From: Bacteroidales bacterium | GTDB taxonomy: Bacteria > Bacteroidota > Bacteroidia > Bacteroidales > UBA932 | Assembly: GCA_023667095.1 (NCBI GenBank) | Contig: JAMPAT010000002.1 | Location: forward strand, 47,097 to 111,096 | Reading direction: 5' to 3' | DNA: 64,000 nucleotides | Shown: in pieces, positions 13,980 to 28,538 of the stretch | How the letters are laid out: each line of letters begins with the position of its first letter | How positions within the stretch are numbered: the first letter of the stretch is position 1 | Notes under the pieces: generated by a model | What the model saw: the letters and a program-made list of their open reading frames with translations, nothing else | Databases searched by the model: none | What the model was told of the DNA's origin: nothing | Translations under genes and position numbers: made by a program

Positions 13980-16538
13980 TTAATGCTGGCGATTTTTAAT
14001 GAAATCGCTGAAATTCTCATCAAATTTTTCTCCCATCATCCGGCAATAGTTATCAGCAAAAGCATCAAAGACTTTTTTGGCACTGCCGATTCTGTTGAGG
14101 AAGACCAATGCCTGGCACTTCAACTTTACAGCATCCTCATCAAGTGCATCAAAGACAAGGATGGCATCAGCCAGGGAAACGGAAAAAAGTGCAGAAGCAT
14201 CATCATCTATTTCTTTGCACAGCGCTCTCAGATTTTCAAGCATTCTATTCTCATATTTGGCTTTATATGCATCCAGCCACTCATGGCGCATATCAGGAAG
14301 AAGCTGGCCCAAGGCGGCAATCTGCAAAAGATGCCCGGAATGACAGACACCGGAAGAAAGCAGAGAATTTACCCGCAGATAATCCGATATTCCCGAATTG
14401 TCCTCCACTTTCCAATAACCGTTCTTGGATATAATCTGGAAAGCATCTGCAAAAGGTGCCAATTGTGCACGTATCTTGGTCAATGTGACACCACGGTTGT
14501 TATTATAGCTGTTGTCAGATTTATCGAACCACAGGATCTCCTTAAGCTGATTGCTGGATATGCCTTCCGGCTTTACTGAATTCAGTACAAGCAGACACAA
14601 AAGCTGCCGCATCAAAGGCGAGAAGGATGATGTAATGTCTTCACCGGCAACAGAGACAACCTTGAAGCCTCCCAAAAAATATATACCTGGAGCAGGAGGC
14701 TCTGACAACGGTTCGGTATGGACGGCTGCAGAGAAATCCCGGCCGGGAACTTCCTGACCTGAGAGTTCCGGAGCGGAATGTGGAGGGTCCGGAACTGCCG
14801 CATCCGTATTTTCACCGGATTCACGGCGCATCCGCATGCGTTTCAATCCATATACTGCACCAATGGCGGCAATGCCAAGCAAGAACATTGCTGCCACTAT
14901 GGCATACAGGACAGAAATATACTCTGCCGGACTATTTTCTGCGGAGACTATCGGGCTTACAATACTATAGACAGCCACCTCAAACTGTCCTTCATCGTTT
15001 TTATGTGAGACCAAGGCCAAATAGGACCCGTTCTGGGCACAGTATACTAACCTGGCCTCTGACTGGATATCCAGAAAGTTATATGGAATCGGCTCACACA
15101 GGGCAACTGAAGTACCGTCGGACAAATTAAATCTATAGAGCTGGAGATGCGTATTGTATTCATTCGGATTATAGAGCAAAGCAAGGAAAGAATCCGAATC
15201 CTGCTCAAAGACAAGGTCCGAAGCCGCCACAAAGGCATAGTCCGGCTTTTCTGCCCATACTTTTACTGTTTCCAGAGAAGCCTTGTCTACAGCAAACAAA
15301 TCACCGAAAAGACGGGAGCCCAATTCCTGGGCACCGGAATTGTTACCCTTGCCTCCAAATACATATATCTTATTGTCTTTTTGTCCGGCGGCAGCCAAAT
15401 ATCTTGGCGGAATAAGATCCAGGTTTTTCTTTATCACCTCTCCGGTAGCGGGATTCCAGATCTGAAGTTCATTGGAATAGCGGTGATAGCCATATCCAAA
15501 CAAGCTGAAATATCTGTCTGCTGAGCTATCATGGACAATATTTGTATGCAAATATATGGAATGGCCTTTCCTGTCATTATCCTGCACCCAGTCTTTCATA
15601 CCGTAATCAAAACGTATAATCCGAGGTAAATCTCTGTCCAGATATGCGAGAGAGCCATCCTTGAGAATGACAAAATCATTGGTAACCAAGTCTGTCCGGA
15701 TATTATGGCCGGTAGTCCACAATGACGCAGCCTTCCTTTTGACATCGTATTGGCACACTTGTCCTGATGAAATAAAATATGCCAATGCCCGTTCTGCATC
15801 ATAGCAGATAAATGAATTAGACGGTACAACAGCAGACCACATTTTATTCCACCTGGTATTCAGTTCATTGCGCCACAATGGATTATAAACAGAATACGTA
15901 AGTCTGTCAAGACAGTCCAAATCCCTTGCCCCATGAAGGGAAGAAGCATATTTGCGCCTGTCTGTCCTTATCTCCAAATCCCTTATTGTCATAGAAGCCA
16001 CATCGGTAGTCGCAAAATATCCGATATTGTTCTGTCCGAAACACAATGTGGCCTTTGACTTCCTTTTTCTATCAACAACAGGAAGCGAGGCTACAAGAGC
16101 TGAATTTACATGGGCTACAAGGCTGTCGGCCTTCCTTTCAATATGAATGCTTATATCCTGCCAACTGTCATCCAAAGGAAAATAAATCAGATTCACATGG
16201 TCACCGGTTGCACACAGATTAGGGACACCGTCATTTGAAGTATATTGAACGAGATCTATAGATTGGCTGTCATTCAGAATAATCCTGCATATGTATCCGA
16301 ACTTGCTGACATCCGTGTCTACATTCAAGGAAAAATCAATGCACAGAGAGTCCGAAAAAGATATTTTACTCTTTCCGGCTGCCGGAATCTGTAAAGAAGT
16401 CCTCTTGGAAGGCGTAAGTTCATAGGAATGAAACATCAGGCCATCTACGGCCTCTGCCTTCAACAGATAAGGATCTGAAATTGATATTACTCCCAAGAAA
16501 AAAATTGCAGCAAAACTATAATATACTCTTAACCACAT
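13980..16538 (-). CDS. membrane-spanning one-component regulator: N-terminal extracytoplasmic sensor region, internal TM helix, C-terminal OmpR/SARP-type winged-helix domain plus helical (BTAD-like) domain
   Basis: 852 aa. N-terminal hydrophobic anchor; about 530 aa predicted periplasmic with Kelch/propeller-like stretches; TM segment YISVLYAIVAAMFLLGIAAIGAVYGL; C-terminal FLGGFKV...GISSNQLKEILW...RGVTLTKIRAQL resembles a Trans_reg_C/SARP winged helix followed by a helical domain. Sits directly upstream of susC on the same strand. Confidence 0.6.
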   Translation of the reverse strand: MWLRVYYSFAAIFFLGVISISDPYLLKAEAVDGLMFHSYELTPSKRTSLQIPAAGKSKISFSDSLCIDFSLNVDTDVSKFGYICRIILNDSQSIDLVQYTSNDGVPNLCATGDHVNLIYFPLDDSWQDISIHIERKADSLVAHVNSALVASLPVVDRKRKSKATLCFGQNNIGYFATTDVASMTIRDLEIRTDRRKYASSLHGARDLDCLDRLTYSVYNPLWRNELNTRWNKMWSAVVPSNSFICYDAERALAYFISSGQVCQYDVKRKAASLWTTGHNIRTDLVTNDFVILKDGSLAYLDRDLPRIIRFDYGMKDWVQDNDRKGHSIYLHTNIVHDSSADRYFSLFGYGYHRYSNELQIWNPATGEVIKKNLDLIPPRYLAAAGQKDNKIYVFGGKGNNSGAQELGSRLFGDLFAVDKASLETVKVWAEKPDYAFVAASDLVFEQDSDSFLALLYNPNEYNTHLQLYRFNLSDGTSVALCEPIPYNFLDIQSEARLVYCAQNGSYLALVSHKNDEGQFEVAVYSIVSPIVSAENSPAEYISVLYAIVAAMFLLGIAAIGAVYGLKRMRMRRESGENTDAAVPDPPHSAPELSGQEVPGRDFSAAVHTEPLSEPPAPGIYFLGGFKVVSVAGEDITSSFSPLMRQLLCLLVLNSVKPEGISSNQLKEILWFDKSDNSYNNNRGVTLTKIRAQLAPFADAFQIISKNGYWKVEDNSGISDYLRVNSLLSSGVCHSGHLLQIAALGQLLPDMRHEWLDAYKAKYENRMLENLRALCKEIDDDASALFSVSLADAILVFDALDEDAVKLKCQALVFLNRIGSAKKVFDAFADNYCRMMGEKFDENFSDFIKNRQH

Positions 16539-19227: not shown

Positions 19228-21240
19228 TTACACCAGATGCTGCAGCCTGCCGATGAGTTCATCCCCGAGGGCCATCTTGATCCTGATATGGTCAAGGGTC
19301 TCCACAACAAAAGGATTGGAATCGAACTGGCCGCCACGCACTTCCTCAAAATCCTGTCTGCGCTGATGCCTGTCTCCATCCACCCCGAACCCTGTCATGG
19401 AAGACAGGGAAAACTCCTTGCGGGCATCCTCATAGACCATCCGGTCAAGCCCAGAGACAGCATCCTTCCACTGCTCGACGATACGCACGACATCAGCAGC
19501 AGTAATACTCTCCATATCAATGGAATAAAAATCAGCTATCTGACTGTATGCCCAGGTCCACTCATAGTCATAATACATCGAATGCATCATGCAGAAACGC
19601 CCATGTACTTGCTCCATATCCGTAACCACACCATTCTCGATGTCATCCAGAAGTGCCTCCACCTCACTCTTCGGGGCAATCATGCCCGAGACATCCACCC
19701 ATTGGCCCGAACCGGCATGGCAATCAGGACGTAGTCTGCCCCGCATGTCTTCATCGGAATCAAATTCAAGTCCTTCAAGCCTCTTTATCAATGAATTGCC
19801 CAAGAATTTACTGATAGCCATCTCATAGAAACGGATTCCGTTTTTCAGGGATGAGCTCTTTATCTTGGCACTCTGGAACGAATACGTATCGGAAGTCTCC
19901 CCTGACACCCTCCTCAGGTCACGAAGAATCTGCCGTCCTTTCAGCATCTTCTGTATAGTAAACGGACTCAGCAGATTATAGTTGATGCAGTCCAGGATAT
20001 CCGGATCGGTCCTCATATCCCTCTTCGGCCATTTCTTCGCATCCCTTATTGTCCCTACACTCTTCAGGTTCACACCTGGGATAAGATATGATGTACTCTG
20101 CTGCTCAATAAGATACGAGAATGGCAGGTCAGAAGTGTCCTGATGTGTCACATGCCTTCCCATCACAAGCGAGAACGCCCCTATCTTTGCCGGCCAGAGC
20201 AGGTAGGAATCAGATGAGGTCTTGGCTCCACGCTCCATAATGCCTTGATGTATAGGCCCGAGCTTGTACATGTGGTTGCTCTGGTTTGAGCCTGAACCGG
20301 CATTCATGAACGAAAACATTCCGGCTATAAGCAGGGTGGACTTGTGGTGAGTGACCGTGAATGGACCTGCAAAGATGGCACAGGCCTCCCCGTTCTCCCC
20401 CTGGCAATTGCTGAAAAACAGCGAATCTGTTGCAGAATATGTATGCCCGAGACGGCATGCCTGCCCTATGAAGCAACGCGAGAAAGTCACCCCGTCCTCA
20501 ACGGAAGAGCCGCTTGAAATGATGAAGTCATCGCCTATTACACCGACCCCGACATGAACCGGAGCATGTACATTGCTGTTTATGCTGCCATTCTTGAGCC
20601 TTGCCGTACCCTCTATCTTGCAATAGTCTCCGATATTCACATTCTTTATATATCCTGCATCTGCAATCATCACATGCGAGCCGATGCGCCCGACAGAAGA
20701 AGCCACCGAATCCACATACTGCCCAATCATTGCCCTCATACGCGCAATAAGTTCAGGCCTATGGCGATATAACGCCATTATATATGCCTGCTGCGCAGAG
20801 AGACGGTCATAAACCATAACCTCGCGGCCACCGGTCTCGTTCAGCACAGATACCTCCACACCGTTTCCGAAAGTGCTGACACCGTCAGTAAGGATAATGT
20901 CCACATTCTCGATGAAGGTGTCATTGCCTATACTGTAGTTTGCAATGTAGTTCTTCACATTCTCAATGCAGCAGTCATCACCGATAGACACATTATGCAA
21001 AGTAGCATGGTAAATCCCGGAATGTTTTGTCATCCCTCCGGCAAGTTCGAATGACTTATAGAAAGACCCTATCCTTACAAATCCTGAAAAACGCGCATAA
21101 TGCACATATTCAGTCGAAAACTCCTCCGCGACCTCAATCTGCGACCAATCGGCGGCAGTACACATCTGCGCCTTGAGACGGGCAACCTCATCCGTCTCCA
21201 AAAATCTGTATTTTCCCATATAATCCTGTTTTGAAGGCAA
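19228..21240 (-). CDS. DUF4954-like large left-handed beta-helix (hexapeptide-repeat) protein, function unknown
   Basis: 670 aa, many [LIV]G-x-x-x-x hexapeptide-like turns (NVSIGDDCCIENV..., NVNIGDYCKIEG...); no signal peptide; candidate -7 box on the minus strand at 21261-21268 (plus-strand CAAATGTA). Confidence 0.55.
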   Translation of the reverse strand: MPSKQDYMGKYRFLETDEVARLKAQMCTAADWSQIEVAEEFSTEYVHYARFSGFVRIGSFYKSFELAGGMTKHSGIYHATLHNVSIGDDCCIENVKNYIANYSIGNDTFIENVDIILTDGVSTFGNGVEVSVLNETGGREVMVYDRLSAQQAYIMALYRHRPELIARMRAMIGQYVDSVASSVGRIGSHVMIADAGYIKNVNIGDYCKIEGTARLKNGSINSNVHAPVHVGVGVIGDDFIISSGSSVEDGVTFSRCFIGQACRLGHTYSATDSLFFSNCQGENGEACAIFAGPFTVTHHKSTLLIAGMFSFMNAGSGSNQSNHMYKLGPIHQGIMERGAKTSSDSYLLWPAKIGAFSLVMGRHVTHQDTSDLPFSYLIEQQSTSYLIPGVNLKSVGTIRDAKKWPKRDMRTDPDILDCINYNLLSPFTIQKMLKGRQILRDLRRVSGETSDTYSFQSAKIKSSSLKNGIRFYEMAISKFLGNSLIKRLEGLEFDSDEDMRGRLRPDCHAGSGQWVDVSGMIAPKSEVEALLDDIENGVVTDMEQVHGRFCMMHSMYYDYEWTWAYSQIADFYSIDMESITAADVVRIVEQWKDAVSGLDRMVYEDARKEFSLSSMTGFGVDGDRHQRRQDFEEVRGGQFDSNPFVVETLDHIRIKMALGDELIGRLQHLV

Positions 21241-21481
21241 ATGTAGACAAAAACCGGGAGCCTACGTCAAGTTTGCCTATAAGATTGAAGAAACTATGCT
21301 GTAATTATGTATCCACACAGATAAACCGGTTCCAGTCAGCCCCCTATTACTGTGATTAAGGCAGGCTACTGATACTCACGTATCAGTTCATCAACAATAT
21401 ACAGGTCCCCCTGAAGGTAAAGCCCTGTATCCTCATCATGGAACCTGCGGCATGTACGGCTTCTGTAGAACAGGTCAAGCA

Positions 21482-22546
21482 TCACAGCCTGTCCAGATGG
21501 CACATGATCAGGTTTCCGTCCTCATCGCGCAGGTGCATCCCGTTGCCCAGGCAATAGCGGAAATATCTGCAGCCAGCGCATTTGCCTGTCTTCATCCATG
21601 AACGGTCACGGTATTGCGTGAAACGGTTCTCCCAGACATCACAGAAATTATCCTTATATATATTGCCCTGATGGTAGTCGCTGCGGATGCTTGCACATGC
21701 AGAGATTGAGCCGTCCACAAGGACAGATGCCACATTCATACCCGCAGCACAGTAGAACAGATGGTCACGCACATCTCCCTCAAATTCCCCCAAAAATCCT
21801 TCGCAGCCATATCTTGCAGAAATACGCCCCTCCTTTCTTGTCTGCCTTATGAACTCCATAAGACTTCGGAACTGCTCCGCACTCAATTGAAGTTCCGGAT
21901 CGGCAGCAGCCCTGCCGACAGGGAAGACAGTAAACATCCTCCAGTTTTTCAGCCCGACAGAGATAAGATAGTCACGCAGTTGCGGCAGATATCCGATATT
22001 CTTCCCGTTTACACAAGTCACCACATCAAAATTGACTGACGGCTCGGATGCCAATATCCTGACTGCCTCAGATGCCCTTGCAAAAGAACCTTTCACACCA
22101 CGCATCCAGTCATGCTCCGCTTCAAAGCCATCAAGGCTTATTGTTGCCGAATGCAGACCGGCAGAAAGCAGTTCGTCAATCTTCCGCGGAGTCATAAGCA
22201 TACCGTTGGAGACAAGCCCCCATGGGAACTCCATGTCATAGATGGCACGCCCGCACCTGACGATGTCACTGCGCATCAAAGGCTCACCTCCTGTAAGCAT
22301 TACCATCACTTTATGTGAATCATAATGTTCCTTTACCGATTCCAGTAGCTTGGCAAAATCCACGAACGGCATGTCAGGATGAAGTGCAGACACCTTGCAG
22401 TCGCTCCCGCAATGACGGCAGCGCAAGTTGCACCTCAATGTGCATTCCCAGAACAGCTGTGTAAGCGGATGCTGCACCGCTTGATTCTTCACAATCTGGC
22501 GGTGCAGCTCCAAAGCAATCCTCTTTTTGATAGAAAGTCCGTCCAT
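21482..22546 (-). CDS. radical SAM enzyme with C-terminal SPASM (twitch/auxiliary 4Fe-4S) domain
   Basis: CNLRCRHC (CxxxCxxC) at residues 37-44; TGGEPL motif; C-terminal Cys cluster CAAGM...SAC...CAGCRYFRYC...MC typical of SPASM; 354 aa. Confidence 0.85.
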   Translation of the reverse strand: MDGLSIKKRIALELHRQIVKNQAVQHPLTQLFWECTLRCNLRCRHCGSDCKVSALHPDMPFVDFAKLLESVKEHYDSHKVMVMLTGGEPLMRSDIVRCGRAIYDMEFPWGLVSNGMLMTPRKIDELLSAGLHSATISLDGFEAEHDWMRGVKGSFARASEAVRILASEPSVNFDVVTCVNGKNIGYLPQLRDYLISVGLKNWRMFTVFPVGRAAADPELQLSAEQFRSLMEFIRQTRKEGRISARYGCEGFLGEFEGDVRDHLFYCAAGMNVASVLVDGSISACASIRSDYHQGNIYKDNFCDVWENRFTQYRDRSWMKTGKCAGCRYFRYCLGNGMHLRDEDGNLIMCHLDRL

Positions 22547-22556
22547 GGCCGATATT

Positions 22557-23048
22557 TTACTGACCTTCTCCGGTCTTCTCTGTCATCTCAACCTCGGAAG
22601 CATCATATACATATTTCCCGCGATACCAGTTACCAGCCCCCTCATTATCCACAGCTGTCAGAGGAGCAGTGACCTCAACCTCACCATAGTCTCCGTCAGA
22701 AGCGTCCAGGTCCCTGCACTTAAGTACTACATTGTCGTTGAACACCATGCCGTCGCCATTGATACTGATGAGCCCGTCCAGCCCTGTCGTATCTTTCGGC
22801 CATATAGGTCTCAGCAAGATTTCTCCGTCAGGGCGAACCTGAGTAAAAGCTTCAACCTCTATCTTTGTCAAAGGCTTTCCGGTTTCCTTGTCAACCACCT
22901 TTCCCTTGATTTCAAACTTCGAATACGGTGTACCATACTCACACATAATGTTTGAGCCAGGGTCCGGCTCACCATCGCATGCCTCAATCGAAGCAACGCC
23001 AAGGATACCCAACGCCATTCGGCACAGTCTCAGGAGAAAATCTTTCAT
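22557..23048 (-). CDS. small lipoprotein encoded 8 nt upstream of and co-oriented with the rSAM/SPASM gene (radical-SAM-associated lipoprotein)
   Basis: 163 aa; signal peptide plus lipobox SIEAC; mature protein has a beta-sandwich-like GKVVDKETGKPL segment and an acidic C-terminus; two further Cys residues. Confidence 0.6.
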   Translation of the reverse strand: MKDFLLRLCRMALGILGVASIEACDGEPDPGSNIMCEYGTPYSKFEIKGKVVDKETGKPLTKIEVEAFTQVRPDGEILLRPIWPKDTTGLDGLISINGDGMVFNDNVVLKCRDLDASDGDYGEVEVTAPLTAVDNEGAGNWYRGKYVYDASEVEMTEKTGEGQ

Positions 23049-23123: not shown

Positions 23124-24518
23124 TTATGCATCAAGTTTCCCGGAAATATACCCATGTATAGCCGCAGCTGCCTTTCGGCCTGCTCCCATGGCGAGGATTA
23201 CAGTTGCAGCTCCGGTCACGGCATCACCTCCGGCAAAGACTCCCTCACGCGATGTCACACCGTTCTCGTCAGCCACGACACATCCCCTCCTGCTGGTCTC
23301 CAGTCCGGATGTCGTACGTGCAATAAGAGGGTTAGGTGAAGTGCCGAGAGCCATAATCACGGAATCAGTCTCCACAACAAATTCAGAGTCCGGCACAGGT
23401 ACCGGAGAACGTCTTCCGCTCTCATCAGGCTCCCCAAGCTCCATCCTTATGCACTTTATTCCGCGGACCCAGCCATTTTCATCACCGAGTACCTCCACCG
23501 GATTTGTCAGCATCATGAACTTCACTCCCTCTTCCTTGGCATGGTGAACCTCCTCACGCCTTGCAGGCAGTTCCGCCTCGGTACGTCGGTAGACAATGGT
23601 AGTATCAGCCCCAAGACGCAATGCAGTACGCGCTGCATCCATGGCGACATTTCCTCCACCGACGACAACAACCTTGTCACCGGTATGTATTGGAGTCATA
23701 TAGTCGCTGCGGTAAGCTTTCATAAGATTATTTCTCGTCAGGAATTCATTGGCAGAAAAGACTCCATTGCAATTCTCGCCAGGGATACCCATGAATCTCG
23801 GTAATCCGGCACCGGAACCGATGAATACAGCAGAGAATCCCTCCTTGTCCAGCAATGAGTCGATTGTAACTGTCCTTCCGACTACCACATTGGTCTCAAT
23901 CTTCACACCGAGCTCCTTGACTGCAGCGATTTCTGCTGCAACAATCTTCTCTTTCGGAAGCCTGAACTCAGGGATACCGTATTCAAGCACTCCTCCAGCC
24001 TTGTGCAGGGCCTCGAATATCGTGACATCATATCCGAGCTTGGCAAGGTCGTATGCGCAGGCAAGCCCCGACGGCCCGCTTCCGACAATTGCCACACGAT
24101 GTCCATTGGACGGCGCTGCAACAGGCTTTACAGCCCCGTTCCCGCGGTTCCAGTCTGCAACAAAACGTTCAAGGTTTCCGATTGAGACAGGCTCTCCCTT
24201 GACACCAAGGATACAGCTCCCCTCGCACTGGGTCTCCTGAGGACAGACCCTTCCGCAGACAGCAGGAAGCGAAGAGTCCTCCGCAATCACAGCGGCAGCA
24301 GCAGCAAAATCCCCTGCCGCCACATGGCCGATGAATCCCGGTATATTGACATTGACCGGACAGGCCCCCACGCAACGCGGATTTTTGCAATGCAGGCAGC
24401 GCGAAGCCTCCCTGACAGCCTCCTCCAGGCTGTATCCATAGCTTACCTCTTCAAAATTCCTTGCCCTTGTTTCAGGGTCCTGTGCCCTTGCCGGCACCCT
24501 TGGTATTCTCTCTGCCAT
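23124..24518 (-). CDS. nfnB: NfnB-like / glutamate-synthase small-subunit-like NADPH oxidoreductase (SudA-type)
   Basis: 464 aa; N-terminal 4Fe-4S Cys motifs CLHCKNPRCVGACP and CGRVCPQETQCEGSC; two Rossmann motifs VAIVGSGPSG and VVVVGGGNVAMD. Confidence 0.85.
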   Translation of the reverse strand: MAERIPRVPARAQDPETRARNFEEVSYGYSLEEAVREASRCLHCKNPRCVGACPVNVNIPGFIGHVAAGDFAAAAAVIAEDSSLPAVCGRVCPQETQCEGSCILGVKGEPVSIGNLERFVADWNRGNGAVKPVAAPSNGHRVAIVGSGPSGLACAYDLAKLGYDVTIFEALHKAGGVLEYGIPEFRLPKEKIVAAEIAAVKELGVKIETNVVVGRTVTIDSLLDKEGFSAVFIGSGAGLPRFMGIPGENCNGVFSANEFLTRNNLMKAYRSDYMTPIHTGDKVVVVGGGNVAMDAARTALRLGADTTIVYRRTEAELPARREEVHHAKEEGVKFMMLTNPVEVLGDENGWVRGIKCIRMELGEPDESGRRSPVPVPDSEFVVETDSVIMALGTSPNPLIARTTSGLETSRRGCVVADENGVTSREGVFAGGDAVTGAATVILAMGAGRKAAAAIHGYISGKLDA

Positions 24519-25378
24519 TACTGTTTCCCCCTTCCTATTTTGCAGATGTGCGGTTCTGTTGTCTGCTCCTCAGTCCTGTACATGGACTGGCGGCGCATTG
24601 CTTCATCAAAATCCACATCATATCCATTGAACTCCGGTCCCTCGACACAGGCAAACCTCATCTTTCCGCCCACAGTGACCCTGCATGCCCCGCACATTCC
24701 TGTACCGTCAACCATCAGTGTATTGAGGCTCACGGTTATAGGCAATCCAAGCTTTTTAGCTGTAAGCGTGGCAAACTTCATCATTATCATAGGCCCGATT
24801 GCAACTGCCATAGTGTACTTATGACCATCTGCCACAAGTTTCTCCAGCATACCTGTCACAAGGCCATGGAAACCCTCGGACCCGTCATCTGTACATATAT
24901 GGAGATTATCGCAGACGCCTGCCATCTCCTTCCTGTATATCATCAGGTCAGCAGTCTTTGCACCGATAATCACATCCACAGCCACTCCCCTTTCATGGAG
25001 CCATTTCGCCTGCGGATATACGGGAGCAGTACCGACACCTCCGGCTATGAAGACATATCTCTGCCTTTTCAGCTCATCCTCCGGCATCTCCATGAATTCA
25101 GAAGGTACACCGAGCGGCCCGACAACATCAGCGAAGCAGTCACCTTCCTCCAAGGCGCAGATGTCCTGTGTAGATGCCCCTATCTTCTGCGTCACAATGG
25201 TCACCGTGCCTTTTTCAGCATCAAAGTCACTTATTGTCAACGGGATACGTTCTCCTCCTTCCTCAACCCTCACAATCAGGAACTGCCCTGGACAAGCAGA
25301 GGAGGCCAGGCGTGGTGCCTCGACCTCCATTCTGCAGACCAAAGGAGTAAGCATCTCTTTCGATACTACCCTATACAT
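24518..25378 (-). CDS. nfnA: NfnA-like / PyrK-like FAD and 2Fe-2S ferredoxin-NADP reductase subunit (SudB-type)
   Basis: 286 aa; FAD/NAD-binding fold; C-terminal CGACRV...FACVEGP cluster. Its stop shares nucleotide 24518 with the downstream gene's start (coupling). Confidence 0.8.
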   Translation of the reverse strand: MYRVVSKEMLTPLVCRMEVEAPRLASSACPGQFLIVRVEEGGERIPLTISDFDAEKGTVTIVTQKIGASTQDICALEEGDCFADVVGPLGVPSEFMEMPEDELKRQRYVFIAGGVGTAPVYPQAKWLHERGVAVDVIIGAKTADLMIYRKEMAGVCDNLHICTDDGSEGFHGLVTGMLEKLVADGHKYTMAVAIGPMIMMKFATLTAKKLGLPITVSLNTLMVDGTGMCGACRVTVGGKMRFACVEGPEFNGYDVDFDEAMRRQSMYRTEEQTTEPHICKIGRGKQ

Positions 25379-25400
25379 TACATTATATTTTTAATTCAAC

Positions 25401-25745
25401 TTATTCGTTCCTTTTCCCCTTGACCTCATATCCGAGTTTCCCTATGGCCTCAGCCAGAGTCTTCTCGTCGGTCTTCCTAGGGTCGTATGTAATCTTGACT
25501 GTCTGGTCCTCAAGTGACACCTCCAGTGCCTTCACCCCCTTTTCAAAGGAAATGTTCTCCCTGACTTTCTTGACACAGTTCTCGCAGTGCAGATGCACTT
25601 CGAATATAACTGTCTTGTTCACTGACTTAGGCTTTGCTGTGGAAACCTCTGCCATATTTCCGGAAATCTCTGCTGCCGATGAAGCAGCTGTCACCAATGT
25701 CATCAAGGCGATGACACAATAAAATATCTTTTTCATATTCTGCAA
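25401..25745 (-). CDS. secreted heavy-metal-associated (HMA) domain protein with atypical H-C-x-x-C metal site
   Basis: Signal peptide; VIFEVHLHCENCVKKV...KITYDPRKTDEKTLAEAIGKLGYEV fits the HMA beta-alpha-beta-beta-alpha-beta pattern, but HCENC replaces GMxCxxC. Confidence 0.65.
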   Translation of the reverse strand: MQNMKKIFYCVIALMTLVTAASSAAEISGNMAEVSTAKPKSVNKTVIFEVHLHCENCVKKVRENISFEKGVKALEVSLEDQTVKITYDPRKTDEKTLAEAIGKLGYEVKGKRNE

Positions 25746-25782
25746 AATTAATAATTTTTAGACTGATAATGCAAGTTCACTG

Positions 25783-27981
25783 TCAATTTGTCTTCCAGAG
25801 AGTGAAACGTACACCTGCATATACCTTTATTCCCATGAGCGGCCCCCAGATTGCGCTCGCATCGAACGAAGCCTGGTCGGCAGACACATGGCCGTTCCCG
25901 TCCCTGGCACCTCCGAGGATAACATCCTTCTGGCGGTAATTTGTCAGGTTCTCTCCACCGATATAGACATCAACACCCTTGAAACGTCTTGTAACCTGCA
26001 GATAAAGGAGAGGATACACTGGAGTAAGGCCTTTCCTGTAAATAAGGTTGCCATCCTCATCCTTCAGTTCCTTCATGAAATTGTACACCCGGCTCGGCCC
26101 GTTGACAGAAGCCGTGAAGTCAAATATCCATTTATTGAGGTTTGTGGCATACTGGAGATTGAGCACACCTTTGTAGCGGCTTGTAAGCGGCCTCTCCACA
26201 AGTCCCTGACCCTCAAGTTCAATCTTGGCATTCGTATAGCGGAAAGTCGCGGTAACAGTGAACCTCTCAATCGGCTCGATATTGAAATCCACCTGGTAGT
26301 TGTCAGTGAACGAGCGTCTTCCGTCAAGGTTATAGAAAGCAATCTGCGTAGCTGAAGAAGCGGTGTTTCCAAGTTCATAGTCCACCACCATCTGCTGTGC
26401 GAACTGGGTCCTGAAATAGTCAAAGCTGAGGTATGTGCTTGAGCCAAACGGGAAATAATATGTGATGTTTCCGCCGAAAGTCCATGCATCTTCAAGCGTA
26501 TGTGCATTGTAGTCCCCGACAAATGTCTTTCCTGTTGAGAACACACCGATATTGTCCACAAGAGGTGTTGCATATCTCAGTCCACGGCCTCCGTTTGCCC
26601 TGAGCACAATCTCGTCTATAGGGGAATATTTCAATGTGACACGCGGAGAGAACTTGAATCCGGGACCGTTATACCAGTCGCCCCTGACTCCTGCTATTGC
26701 AGAGAACTTGTCCCCTGCATGGAAAGTGTACTCACCGAACACACCGGCATTCATCAGGTCTGTACCTGTCTTCTTTCCTGCTCCCTGTACAAGCATAAAA
26801 CCGTTCAGGGTTCCGAGGGCAGGATCGAAATCACCGTTGATACGCACCATCCTCAGGAAGTCCTCATTGTACCTGTCGTATGTCCCGCTCAATCCCACGG
26901 TGAATTTATGGGACTCATTTATCTCATTCTGGTACAGCAGATTGACAAATGCAGAATGCTGTCCTGCAAGATATTTGGTCGCGCCGAAATACGAATCCAT
27001 GTCATAGTAGTTATAGTCTGCCACGACAGCGATATTCTGTGAATTGTCCTCATTCAGAGGGACTCCGACCTTGACATACCCATTGAGCGAACGGTTAAGG
27101 ATATCCGAGCCCCAGGCATGGTTTTCTGTTGCCAAGGTACCTTTATCTGCAGCAGACATGTATGATTCATGGTTATATCCGTCCTGTCCTCCACGTCTGC
27201 GGTCCTGCAGCGCCCTGACACCGAATCGCACCTGCACACCGTTGTCAGCATAATAGAGCCAGCGGTTCGCCAGATTGAACTGCAGCATCTTAGGGTCATC
27301 AAGATACCCGTCATGATTATGGTCGAAGCTCTTGATATTCCCGGATACATGACCGAGAATCACAGTGCTCCAGTTCGCACCCATCTGCAGCGAAGAGGCG
27401 ACATTGAGGTCCATCTTTGTATCGCTCATGACAGCTGCATTGATAAACAGAGGCTTCTCATCTGTAGGCTTGCGGTGCTCAAGATTGATCTGCCCTGTGA
27501 TTGATTCCACACCGTTGATTACAGAAGATGCTCCTTTTGCAATCTGTATGCTTTCAAGCCACTGTCCCGGCACGTATGAAAGTCCGAACGGTGCAGCAAG
27601 GCCACGCATCACAGGACGGTTCTCGTCAAGCATCTGGGTATATGTGCCGCTCAGCCCGAGCAGACGTATCTGGCGTGCACCTGTGACTGCATCCGAATAT
27701 CCGACAGTCACACTTGCAGAATTCTCAAAGCTTTCTGCAAGGTTGCAGCAGGCCATCTTGCACAGTCCTGCCGCAGAAATGACCTCAGTACGGATAGGCT
27801 TGCCCTTTGAAAGGTAGTTGCCGGCCTGACGCGAGACAAACACGGTTGCCTCCAGGCTGTCAGAACGGTCCTTATATATATTGGTAGTATCTATTATTTC
27901 GCCATTGGCGCCATATACCTGGGCCAAGGCAGATGGAACGGCTGCAAACACAGCCAATATTATAAACAATATCTTTTTCAT
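25783..27981 (-). CDS. TonB-dependent outer-membrane receptor (non-SusC type, 732 aa)
   Basis: Signal peptide, plug domain, long beta-barrel, C-terminal FTLWKTN aromatic end. Confidence 0.85.
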   Translation of the reverse strand: MKKILFIILAVFAAVPSALAQVYGANGEIIDTTNIYKDRSDSLEATVFVSRQAGNYLSKGKPIRTEVISAAGLCKMACCNLAESFENSASVTVGYSDAVTGARQIRLLGLSGTYTQMLDENRPVMRGLAAPFGLSYVPGQWLESIQIAKGASSVINGVESITGQINLEHRKPTDEKPLFINAAVMSDTKMDLNVASSLQMGANWSTVILGHVSGNIKSFDHNHDGYLDDPKMLQFNLANRWLYYADNGVQVRFGVRALQDRRRGGQDGYNHESYMSAADKGTLATENHAWGSDILNRSLNGYVKVGVPLNEDNSQNIAVVADYNYYDMDSYFGATKYLAGQHSAFVNLLYQNEINESHKFTVGLSGTYDRYNEDFLRMVRINGDFDPALGTLNGFMLVQGAGKKTGTDLMNAGVFGEYTFHAGDKFSAIAGVRGDWYNGPGFKFSPRVTLKYSPIDEIVLRANGGRGLRYATPLVDNIGVFSTGKTFVGDYNAHTLEDAWTFGGNITYYFPFGSSTYLSFDYFRTQFAQQMVVDYELGNTASSATQIAFYNLDGRRSFTDNYQVDFNIEPIERFTVTATFRYTNAKIELEGQGLVERPLTSRYKGVLNLQYATNLNKWIFDFTASVNGPSRVYNFMKELKDEDGNLIYRKGLTPVYPLLYLQVTRRFKGVDVYIGGENLTNYRQKDVILGGARDGNGHVSADQASFDASAIWGPLMGIKVYAGVRFTLWKTN

Positions 27982-28067: not shown

Positions 28068-28538
28068 CTACAATCGCCATATACCGAGGACAGAACGGTC
28101 CACGGCACTCCCCGGCAACGGGATTTCACGAAGATGGAGACGGCCTTCACGGTCAAGCACGATACCGGCATCCTGGCCAATTTCCACAGAAAGCGGACAA
28201 TATCCGCAGATACATTTGCAGTCATGATGATGCACATGGCTGCTGTCATCCCTCACTGCCCCTGTCAGCGAAAGAAGGAACAGGTCATCTGAGCAGCATG
28301 CGTTGCCAGACATGGATGCCCCGCCACAGCATTCATGCACACAGGGATGATGACCGCAGCATTCCGCATGGCAATGGTGCTCCGGATGGAAGTCATGGCA
28401 GGTCGCACCCTCAAACAGCGGAGCCACAAACATCTCACCGCTCTCTGCACATGAATGCACATTAAAGCCCAATACGCTAAGTACATACACCAGCGCGACA
28501 AGGCCAGAAAGGCATTTTATGAGAGTTTGTTTCATCAT
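28068..28538 (-). CDS. secreted/anchored Cys- and His-rich protein (13 Cys and 12 His in about 80 residues), putative metal-binding
   Basis: N-terminal hydrophobic signal; CHDFHPEHHCHAECCGHHPCVHECCGG...ACC...HVHHHDCKCICGYCP. Co-oriented directly upstream of the TonB receptor (gap 86 nt). No recognisable family. Confidence 0.45.
   Translation of the reverse strand: MMKQTLIKCLSGLVALVYVLSVLGFNVHSCAESGEMFVAPLFEGATCHDFHPEHHCHAECCGHHPCVHECCGGASMSGNACCSDDLFLLSLTGAVRDDSSHVHHHDCKCICGYCPLSVEIGQDAGIVLDREGRLHLREIPLPGSAVDRSVLGIWRL

Follow-up and report, generated by a model that had tools for sequence, protein, structure and literature searches.

A lipoprotein and radical SAM/SPASM gene pair of gut Bacteroidales with a conserved Tyr-Gly motif as candidate modification site

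What does a radical S-adenosylmethionine (SAM) enzyme act on, and by which reaction, when its gene lies directly beside that of a lipoprotein? The question is raised by a locus in a 64,000-nt stretch of DNA from a Bacteroidales bacterium (assembly GCA_023667095.1, contig JAMPAT010000002.1, positions 47,097 to 111,096; the whole stretch is called the window below), where a lipoprotein gene is followed by that of a radical SAM (rSAM)/SPASM enzyme. Our comparison with related genomes suggests that the lipoprotein is probably the substrate of the enzyme, modified before export at a Tyr-Gly motif close to its lipid anchor. The two genes and the sequences that flank them are as follows.

22557..23048, minus strand: lipoprotein precursor gene (TIGR04134, presumed substrate), 163 aa; from the open reading frame (ORF), NCBIfam and family alignments A2 and A3
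22547..22556, minus strand: spacer from the lipoprotein stop codon to the rSAM start codon, 10 nt; from the sequence
21482..22546, minus strand: radical SAM/SPASM enzyme gene (TIGR04133), 354 aa; from NCBIfam and Pfam PF04055 and PF13186
23105..23112, minus strand: candidate own promoter TATATTTG; match to the Bacteroides -7 consensus TAnnTTTG

The gene pair and its families

An initial annotation, made from the sequence, had proposed a two-gene module, and both of its ORFs are as described there; the intergenic gap, given as 8 nt, is actually 10 nt. This short spacing implies, as far as the sequence can tell, that the two genes are co-transcribed. The candidate promoter TATATTTG lies in the 75 nt that separate the nfnB stop codon from the lipoprotein ATG, as a possible promoter of the module itself; the consensus that it matches was reportedly defined by Bayley, Rocha and Smith in 2000. 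A scan for sigma-70 promoters and terminators gave nothing beyond the shuffled expectation, the sigma-70 model being unsuited to Bacteroidota, and an Rfam scan found no RNA family across the whole window. Membership of the rSAM protein in a defence system was also considered and rejected, as the defence libraries returned a generic viperin-core similarity.

Both proteins scored above the curated NCBIfam cut-offs: the lipoprotein reached 69.1 bits against TIGR04134 lipo_with_rSAM (cut-off 39.8) and the enzyme 558.1 bits against TIGR04133 rSAM_w_lipo (cut-off 425), the latter over its full length, with residues 7-354 aligned to positions 2-349 of the 350 in the profile. This hidden Markov model (HMM) search had been suggested in the initial annotation, and it matched no housekeeping family with a non-protein substrate. 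The TIGRFAMs family of a "radical-SAM-associated putative lipoprotein" that had been named there exists and matches, as TIGR04134. With Pfam, the enzyme matched Radical_SAM (PF04055, 70 bits) and SPASM (PF13186, 28.4 bits, cut-off 21.5), and the window lipoprotein matched no Pfam domain, while some of its relatives carry PF13620.

Within a family that is catalogued but has no assigned function, the window pair is an ordinary member. We found no paper on TIGR04133 or TIGR04134 and none giving their chemistry, which agrees with the earlier statement that no chemistry had been assigned, although a survey by Scott et al. from 2022, reportedly of YG-containing neighbours of rSAM/SPASM proteins, might already list the family. 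Our literature searches likewise returned no paper joining a splicease with a lipoprotein and nothing relevant on a SPASM enzyme with a lipoprotein in Bacteroid* taxa, and a Bacteroidales paper on the mining of RiPPs (peptides that are ribosomally synthesised and then modified post-translationally) leaves the TIGR04133/TIGR04134 pair unmentioned. The only paper citing the TIGR04134 accession (PMC11611037) does so in error, for the type B C-terminal domain of substrates of the type IX secretion system.

Conservation of the pair across genomes

A pattern scan that drew on a single genome for each species gave confirmed relatives of the enzyme in at least 583 species-level genomes. We compared the loci of the best 80 of these relatives, all from other species (81 sequences with the window), which span Muribaculaceae, Cryptobacteroides, Alistipes, Prevotella, Phocaeicola, Paludibacteraceae and others. 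Partners were detected by tblastn and an iterated HMM seeded on the window lipoprotein. A partner adjoins the rSAM gene in 78 of the 79 evaluable loci, which bears out the two-gene module and the synteny that had been named as a check on it. A beta-sandwich partner is present in 62 loci, 16 have short partners only, one (L077) has none, and one is cut by a contig end. The partner lies either upstream or downstream of the rSAM gene and shares its strand except in two loci, and the stop and start codons of the two genes often overlap or nearly do so. Some loci (L005, L039, L063, L073 and, in Phocaeicola vulgatus, L081) hold two or three tandem partners, an arrangement typical of one maturase serving many substrates. 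When the ORFs of all neighbourhoods were clustered, only the two families recurred, the next commonest family being found in 9 of the 81 loci.

The adjacent DUF4954 protein and NfnAB had been named as possible members of the same unit, a proposal that the comparison does not support. DUF4954/DUF6819 was present in 1 of the 80 loci, 5 kb off, and NfnB adjoined the pair in only about seven close relatives, the majority of which have the TonB-receptor/HMA genes upstream in common as well. Both are neighbours by descent, outside the two-gene unit. A 38-aa ORF (21366-21482, minus strand; MLDLFYRSRTCRRFHDEDTGLYLQGDLYIVDELIREYQ) has a start codon that overlaps the stop codon of the rSAM gene (TGATG) and recalls the small PlpY gene that follows plpX. 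As neither tblastn nor an ORF scan found a counterpart in the 80 loci, it was rejected as a PlpY-like gene and is probably spurious.

The pair was also supposed to be restricted to Bacteroidetes, which is not strictly so. It is present on plasmid pTS1 of Treponema saccharophilum (Spirochaetota; NZ_AP025289.1, L085:2622-4098), with an enzyme that is 47% identical and a partner that reads ...LTSC-YGMPENYY... (here and below, the hyphen follows the lipobox Cys). This spirochaete occurrence is probably due to horizontal transfer. A recombinase gene of the "master DNA invertase Mpi family" lies just upstream of the Treponema pair. Cultivable gut species that carry the pair include P. vulgatus, P. 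massiliensis, P. coprocola, Parabacteroides distasonis, Prevotella and Alistipes. In P. distasonis the two proteins are WP_036633130.1 and WP_005853865.1.

The Tyr-Gly motif and the short partners

The feature of the mature lipoproteins that recurs across the enzyme's partners is a short motif after the lipobox.

22926..22940, minus strand: E37-Y38-G39-T40-P41, X-Y-G-x-P motif, proposed modification site; from sequence and conservation

In the window protein this motif is part of GAGTATGGTACACCG, which contains EYGTP. Y38, G39 and P41 are conserved in 73, 68 and 72 of 74 members, respectively, and are also invariant or nearly so in alignments A2 and A3. Among 228 unique partners, 213 show x-Y-[G/A]-x-P within 60 residues past the lipobox Cys; the Pro two residues past the Gly is built into this count, and the 15 partners without the pattern are mostly YGPxP forms or fragments. 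The motif lies 1-20 residues past the Cys. Its X residue is Glu in 167 cases, Met in 44 and Leu in 14, its third position is Gly 228 times versus Ala 4 times, and the residue after the Gly is Thr, Cys, Val, Ser, Pro, Ala, Met or Gln. Outside the partner genes, the 12-kb loci contained virtually no ORF with both a lipobox and YGxP; the single exception, in L050, is a true family member. A strict version of this pattern had no match elsewhere in the 64-kb window, but it also missed the window's own gene.

The 16 loci with short partners only are informative exceptions. Their partners are lipopeptides of 50-95 aa whose signal peptide is like that of the longer partners; they have a lipobox Cys and one to four MYGxP repeats, without the beta-sandwich, and the Tyr-Gly follows the Cys directly or after a few residues. 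The ORFs listed here carry one to four (M)YGxP or YGPxP motifs and an acidic tail.

L021:7044-7247, short partner ORF
L022:5814-6020, short partner ORF
L025:7068-7262, short partner ORF
L029:2069-2305, short partner ORF
L032:4584-4769, short partner ORF
L035:2580-2822, short partner ORF
L036:5765-5980, short partner ORF
L048:5732-5974, short partner ORF
L052:5735-5965, short partner ORF
L060:4299-4487, short partner ORF
L064:5484-5991, short partner ORF

The partner of L032, for instance, starts with MKKVFIRIMMLVLGLNVFTACYGPAPYVYDE and reads ...VFTAC-YGPAPYVYDE..., that of L025 reads ...VFTSC-YGMPPGEW..., and that of L029 has MYGPAP three times. In L035, L052 and L064, two to four MYGxP repeats are followed by an acidic low-complexity tail with no sandwich. 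The TIGR04134 model missed some of the short partners and matched others only weakly. Both sandwich and short partners are present in L020 and L039-L041, and short-only loci occur in at least six separate rSAM clades, suggesting that the sandwich was lost or gained repeatedly while the lipobox and the Tyr-Gly were kept. In the two-domain partners P0129 and P0131 (about 265 aa), each sandwich repeat is preceded by its own C-[E/M]-Y-G-x-P, so that, as read from these sequences, the motif is duplicated together with the domain. The features common to all partners are the family signal peptide and the Tyr-Gly motif after the Cys. Since nothing else is shared, the motif is the likely modification site, and judged from this pattern of conservation we regard its assignment as fairly probable.

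Signal peptide and fold of the lipoprotein

22977..23048, minus strand: signal peptide and lipobox, residues 1-24, ...LGILGVASIEA-C24; C24 invariant, family consensus
22584..22925, minus strand: seven-stranded beta-sandwich, residues 42-155, transthyretin/CarboxypepD_reg-like; from AlphaFold2 and Foldseek

The N-terminus of the window lipoprotein consists of the signal peptide MKDFLLRLCRMALGILGVASIEA followed by C24, the lipobox Cys, which is invariant (74 of 74 members). The partners share a signal-peptide consensus, LLGxLGF[ST][SA]C, and its "GF" at -4/-3 was found in 32 of 57 partners versus 0 of 44 other lipoprotein-like ORFs of the same loci. At position -2 of the lipobox the window protein has an atypical Glu, and Asp or Glu recurs there in its clade. 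The near-invariant positions of the partners are Cys24, Tyr38, Gly39, Pro41, some Gly and Asp residues in DxDGxxNGGxF, Trp141 and Gly144. If the signal peptide is read by a cytoplasmic enzyme, stronger conservation there than in the mature part is what would be expected.

An AlphaFold2 model built on a 70-sequence alignment (predicted local distance difference test, pLDDT, 83.6) has a helix at residues 2-16, a disordered tether at 25-36 and the sandwich at 42-155. The strands of the latter are predicted at 42-53, 63-71, 78-87, 93-100, 106-113, 123-134 and 142-155, and the domain holds the conserved DxDGxxNGGxF loop (D113, D115, G119) as well as W141 and G144. Foldseek returned weak matches of the sandwich to transthyretin, 5-hydroxyisourate hydrolase and pilin domains, with template modelling (TM) scores of 0.3-0.5. 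The fold was set aside as a functional clue, being a generic transthyretin/CarboxypepD_reg-like sandwich at these scores.

The residues that follow Cys24 in the window protein are acidic (C-D-G-E-P-D) and are similar to the signal for surface export in Bacteroidota (cf. PMC5080379, PMC6222051). The acidic tail at the other end of the protein had been named as a target of modification; it is variable across partners and often absent, and does not hold as such.

The position of the motif in the tether bears on one alternative, in which the enzyme would make a mass-silent or small change near the motif, such as epimerisation (as by EpeE and YydG), hydroxylation or methylation, that would proof the anchor-proximal tether against proteases. 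The tether in which the motif lies is predicted to be disordered (pLDDT below 50 at residues 25-35) and would profit in the gut from being resistant to proteolysis, and the epimerase EpeE is among the structural neighbours of the enzyme. Epimerisation, however, leaves the invariant Tyr-Gly-x-Pro unexplained, as the known rSAM epimerases, to our knowledge, use no such motif. We consider this alternative very unlikely.

The radical SAM enzyme

22409..22432, minus strand: radical-SAM [4Fe-4S] motif C39-x3-C43-x2-C46; invariant in 81 of 81 sequences
21500..21805, minus strand: SPASM-type auxiliary-cluster region, C248 to C349; seven invariant Cys, Pfam SPASM at residues 266-326

Across Bacteroidales, the 81 enzymes are 57-82% identical. 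Twelve Cys are invariant in them (C39, C43, C46, C50, C178, C248, C266, C284, C323, C326, C332 and C349), as is H338-L339-R340. The CxxxCxxC motif reported in the initial annotation corresponds to C39, C43 and C46, and C50 lies just past it. The SPASM domain had been called full, which is right for its seven invariant Cys and wrong for the fourth Cys of CX2CX5CX3C: the pattern reads C266-x12-G279-x4-C284 and C323-x2-C326-x5-C332 with C349 and C248 present, while the CX3C Cys is replaced by G336, and H338 is invariant instead. Because this fourth Cys is absent, auxiliary cluster I may have a non-Cys or open ligand.

Such an open site is one argument for thioether or other links at C36, C111 or the acidic tail, of the kind made in sactipeptides, ranthipeptides or by QhpD, and the extra Cys of IMCEYGTPY and VLKCRDLD had indeed been proposed as targets. 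In CteB, an open iron site on auxiliary cluster I is bound by a substrate Cys, and the absent fourth Cys could leave a comparable site here. C111 is also kept in the small clade of the window (6 of 6). Against this, 27 of 74 members have Cys at position 36 and Phe predominates at position 111 (47 of 74), the sole invariant Cys is that of the lipobox, which is required for lipidation, and the short partners often have no other Cys, as well as often lacking the tail. No donor Cys of the sactipeptide, ranthipeptide or QhpD type is conserved in the partners apart from the lipobox Cys. Conservation largely refutes the proposed Cys targets, and links of this kind are highly improbable.

The model of the enzyme has a single helix (residues 6-25) ahead of the barrel and no RiPP recognition element (RRE); its SPASM region was modelled with low confidence. 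The nearest solved folds are those of SkfB, SuiB, BlsE and PqqE, among which SkfB, SuiB and PqqE are peptide maturases, and weak sequence matches to solved structures were obtained for BlsE, SkfB, PqqE and MoaA. The fold search was discarded as a guide to chemistry, since it returned generic SPASM/twitch enzymes and did not distinguish their chemistries. The next NCBIfam scores were 139 bits for TIGR04053, 128 for AhbD, 122 for NirJ2, 117 for the GDL-peptide maturase and 101 for TIGR04103. All of them are far under the respective cut-offs, which places the enzyme outside every characterised family. TIGR04053 is the closest non-self family by HMM score. In Halobaculum limi (NZ_CP120469.1, H39), a TIGR04053 rSAM/SPASM gene overlaps or adjoins one for a halocyanin-domain protein and could represent another rSAM enzyme paired with an exported protein.

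That AhbD and NirJ, the best-scoring characterised HMM families, act on tetrapyrroles is one point for a quite different view, in which the rSAM enzyme acts on a small molecule or cofactor (e.g. tetrapyrrole-like) and the lipoprotein, rather than being its substrate, is a functional partner that might bind, carry or regulate. The strong conservation of the enzyme next to fast-diverging partners and the adjacency to NfnAB in the window would also fit this view. The AhbD and NirJ scores, however, are similar to those of several peptide maturases as well as far below their cut-offs, and the NfnAB adjacency is limited to close relatives. Moreover, the mature partner is in another compartment than the enzyme, the neighbourhood holds no further conserved gene for biosynthesis or transport, and fold-less partners of 50-60 aa would be implausible cofactor binders, yet they keep the lipobox and the YG. 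A small-molecule substrate is, in our view, quite unlikely.

Proposed reaction

We consider it likely that the lipoprotein is the substrate, as had been suggested initially, and that it is modified before export, because of the near-universal synteny in either order, the tandem paralogues, the conserved motif and the constrained signal peptide. A radical-SAM enzyme needs SAM, a reductant and Fe-S clusters, and must act prior to export. The cytoplasmic TIGR04133 enzyme would act on the unprocessed pre-lipoprotein, before Sec export and lipidation. It has no RRE and would recognise the signal peptide LLGxLGF[ST][SA]C as a leader-like helix and then modify X-Tyr-Gly-x-Pro (E37-Y38-G39-T40-P41 in the window protein). 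The reaction would be a splicease-type removal of tyramine at X-Tyr-Gly, leaving a ketoamide, with a predicted mass change of -135.06 Da (C8H9NO) per motif. After export, the protein would be lipidated, with the electrophilic ketoamide close to its anchor, and the acidic stretch behind the Cys suggests that the modified lipoprotein may be exposed at the cell surface or carried by outer-membrane vesicles. The ketoamides of spliceotides inhibit serine and cysteine proteases (PMC11626197), which makes protease inhibition a plausible role for the displayed group. Surface display and protease inhibition are speculative.

Splicing is favoured as the chemistry because the invariant Tyr-Gly is preceded by Glu, Met or Leu; as a reading of the motif, it is a tentative choice held with more doubt than confidence. 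The other chemistry to be weighed at the same substrate and site is a cross-link: a triceptide-type cyclophane, from the Tyr ring to the beta-carbon two residues downstream, or another Tyr-centred C-C, C-O or C-S link. Triceptide enzymes are rSAM/SPASM cross-linkers of aromatic residues. A beta-C-H is nearly always present in the residue after the Gly, the nearest folds include SuiB, rSAM/SPASM enzymes that link aromatic residues are well known, and Cys is often found at -2 (27 of 74) or +2 (29 of 232) of the Tyr. Triceptide motifs, however, do not need a middle Gly, so the near-invariant Gly, which defines splice sites, would go unexplained, and as the neighbouring Cys are not conserved, a thioether is not the general reaction. 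A cross-link at the Tyr is in our opinion unlikely.

Several points weigh against the splicing of the pre-lipoprotein. Its modification is a prediction drawn from comparison. The enzyme scored only 101.3 bits against TIGR04103, which we take to be IPR026482, the family of PlpX; the cut-off is 725, and this was the eighth-best family match. As this score is below those of TIGR04053, AhbD and NirJ2, it provides no specific sequence link to spliceases. A motif of three residues such as XYG could be coincidental, four of the motifs have Ala in place of Gly, and in the sandwich partners Tyr38 borders the first strand and might have a structural role. The enzyme (57-82% identity) is far more conserved than its partners (about 30%). 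The survey of Scott et al. from 2022, which reportedly defines the later splicease types by phylogeny, may support, pre-empt or exclude the family. The commonest X is Glu, whereas the characterised native splice sites have Met or Leu, and a DYG site was left unprocessed by RcsX (PMC11626197). In the short "C-YGPAP" forms, X would be the lipidated Cys itself, which Lgt and Lsp may not tolerate.

Taken as a whole, the modification of the pre-lipoprotein at XYG by a leader-guided, splicease-like enzyme is a serious possibility that falls short of probable. That the signal peptide doubles as a RiPP-style leader and that a splicease-like rSAM enzyme yields surface ketoamide "warheads" in gut Bacteroidales and at least one Treponema is doubtful.

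Significance

This orphan radical-SAM system is present in at least 583 species-level genomes, including abundant and cultivable gut species, of which P. distasonis and P. vulgatus are tractable hosts. Our analysis narrows the question to one residue pair, Tyr38-Gly39, the signal peptide as recognition element and one mass prediction. What it adds is the evidence from minimal partners for the Tyr-Gly site, the leader-like signal peptide and a specific chemical prediction. If splicing is true, beta-amino-acid/ketoamide editing of the backbone would extend from secreted RiPPs to membrane-anchored proteins of the microbiota; backbone splicing would feed the Sec/Lgt/Lsp/Lol pathway, and gut commensals would have a new class of cell-surface protease inhibitor. 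If the reaction is another one, it would still be a new rSAM protein modification on an unusually simple two-gene basis.

Neighbouring genes

Upstream of the pair, a block at 23124-27981 (minus strand) is conserved as a unit in L005, L006, L007, L009 and L026 and may be a metal-uptake and redox cluster.

25783-27981, minus strand: TonB-dependent receptor
25401-25745, minus strand: HMA-domain protein
24518-25378, minus strand: NfnA-like protein
23124-24518, minus strand: NfnB/GltD-like protein

Just past the TonB receptor/HMA genes sits the gene of a 156-aa protein (28068-28538, minus strand) with a signal-peptide-like N-terminus and a very Cys/His-rich sequence (e.g. HPEHHCHAECCGHHPCVHECCG). 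It has no Pfam match and, from its composition, may be metal-binding. On the other side of the pair, a 670-aa protein (19228-21240, minus strand) matches DUF4954 with 768 bits and DUF6819, with weak left-handed beta-helix matches (GlmU/eIF2B-like); it is not syntenic with the pair. An 852-aa protein (13980-16538, minus strand) has a weak Kelch/attractin beta-propeller match (21 bits, under the cut-off), a predicted transmembrane segment in its middle and an unannotated C-terminal region.

Comparison with known radical SAM systems

The closest match is the TIGR04133/TIGR04134 pair itself, from which the window proteins show no difference, both being above cut-off and adjacent. It is a catalogue entry without a reaction ("hypoth_equivalog"), called "rSAM/lipoprotein system" in the annotation of the Joint Genome Institute (JGI).

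The spliceases PlpX (WP_019503880.1), PcpX, RhaX, RcsX and RasX are, like the window enzyme, rSAM/SPASM proteins with an XYG-bearing substrate encoded nearby, sometimes with repeated motifs. Their native X is Met or Leu (MYG, LYG) and a single precursor can hold several copies of the motif; some systems have two components and no RRE protein; an N-terminal helix of the precursor activates the enzyme; and whole or tagged proteins can be spliced (PMC11414181, PMC11626197, PMC9811515, PMC10849128, PMC5995677). One engineered splice tag is PIRPGYGLPI, that is, Y-G-x-P. By analogy, the helical, conserved signal peptide of the lipoproteins could play the role of the leader helix in splicease precursors. 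PlpX belongs to IPR026482 (PMC11002830), and by its HMM scores the window enzyme is outside that family. The differences are several: the partner here is a lipoprotein processed by Sec, Lgt and Lsp rather than a Nif11/NHLP-type precursor whose leader is cleaved, the would-be leader is a signal peptide, the commonest X is Glu, there is no peptidase or exporter gene, and splicing is here a prediction.

Anaerobic sulfatase-maturating enzymes (anSME) are also rSAM/SPASM proteins of similar size without an RRE. Their target, recognised and modified in the cytoplasm ahead of Sec export, is a short motif of an unfolded protein that bears a signal peptide, in Bacteroides as well. In contrast, the motif here is X-Y-G-x-P, not C/S-x-P/A-x-R, and the partner is no sulfatase; the family alignments show no conserved sulfatase motif of that form. 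The eight-Cys SPASM domain is full in anSME, whereas the CX3C Cys is absent from the window enzyme, and anSME genes are not known to be coupled to one substrate of their own. Among 73 NCBIfam matches to the window enzyme, anSME was not in the best 25.

QhpD, with its substrate QhpC, a system for maturing the gamma subunit of quinohemoprotein amine dehydrogenase, offers the other half of the comparison. The substrate of this rSAM/SPASM enzyme is a small protein dedicated to it and encoded next to it, which it modifies in the cytoplasm, ahead of export to the periplasm, and the likeness to the window pair lies in this dedicated adjacent substrate and in the timing ahead of export. QhpD makes Cys-to-Asp/Glu thioethers, whereas no Cys besides that of the lipobox is conserved here. 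By analogy, the proposed mode of action of the lipoprotein-associated enzyme is most like those of anSME and QhpD and its motif is like that of the spliceases, while it is a member of none of these groups.

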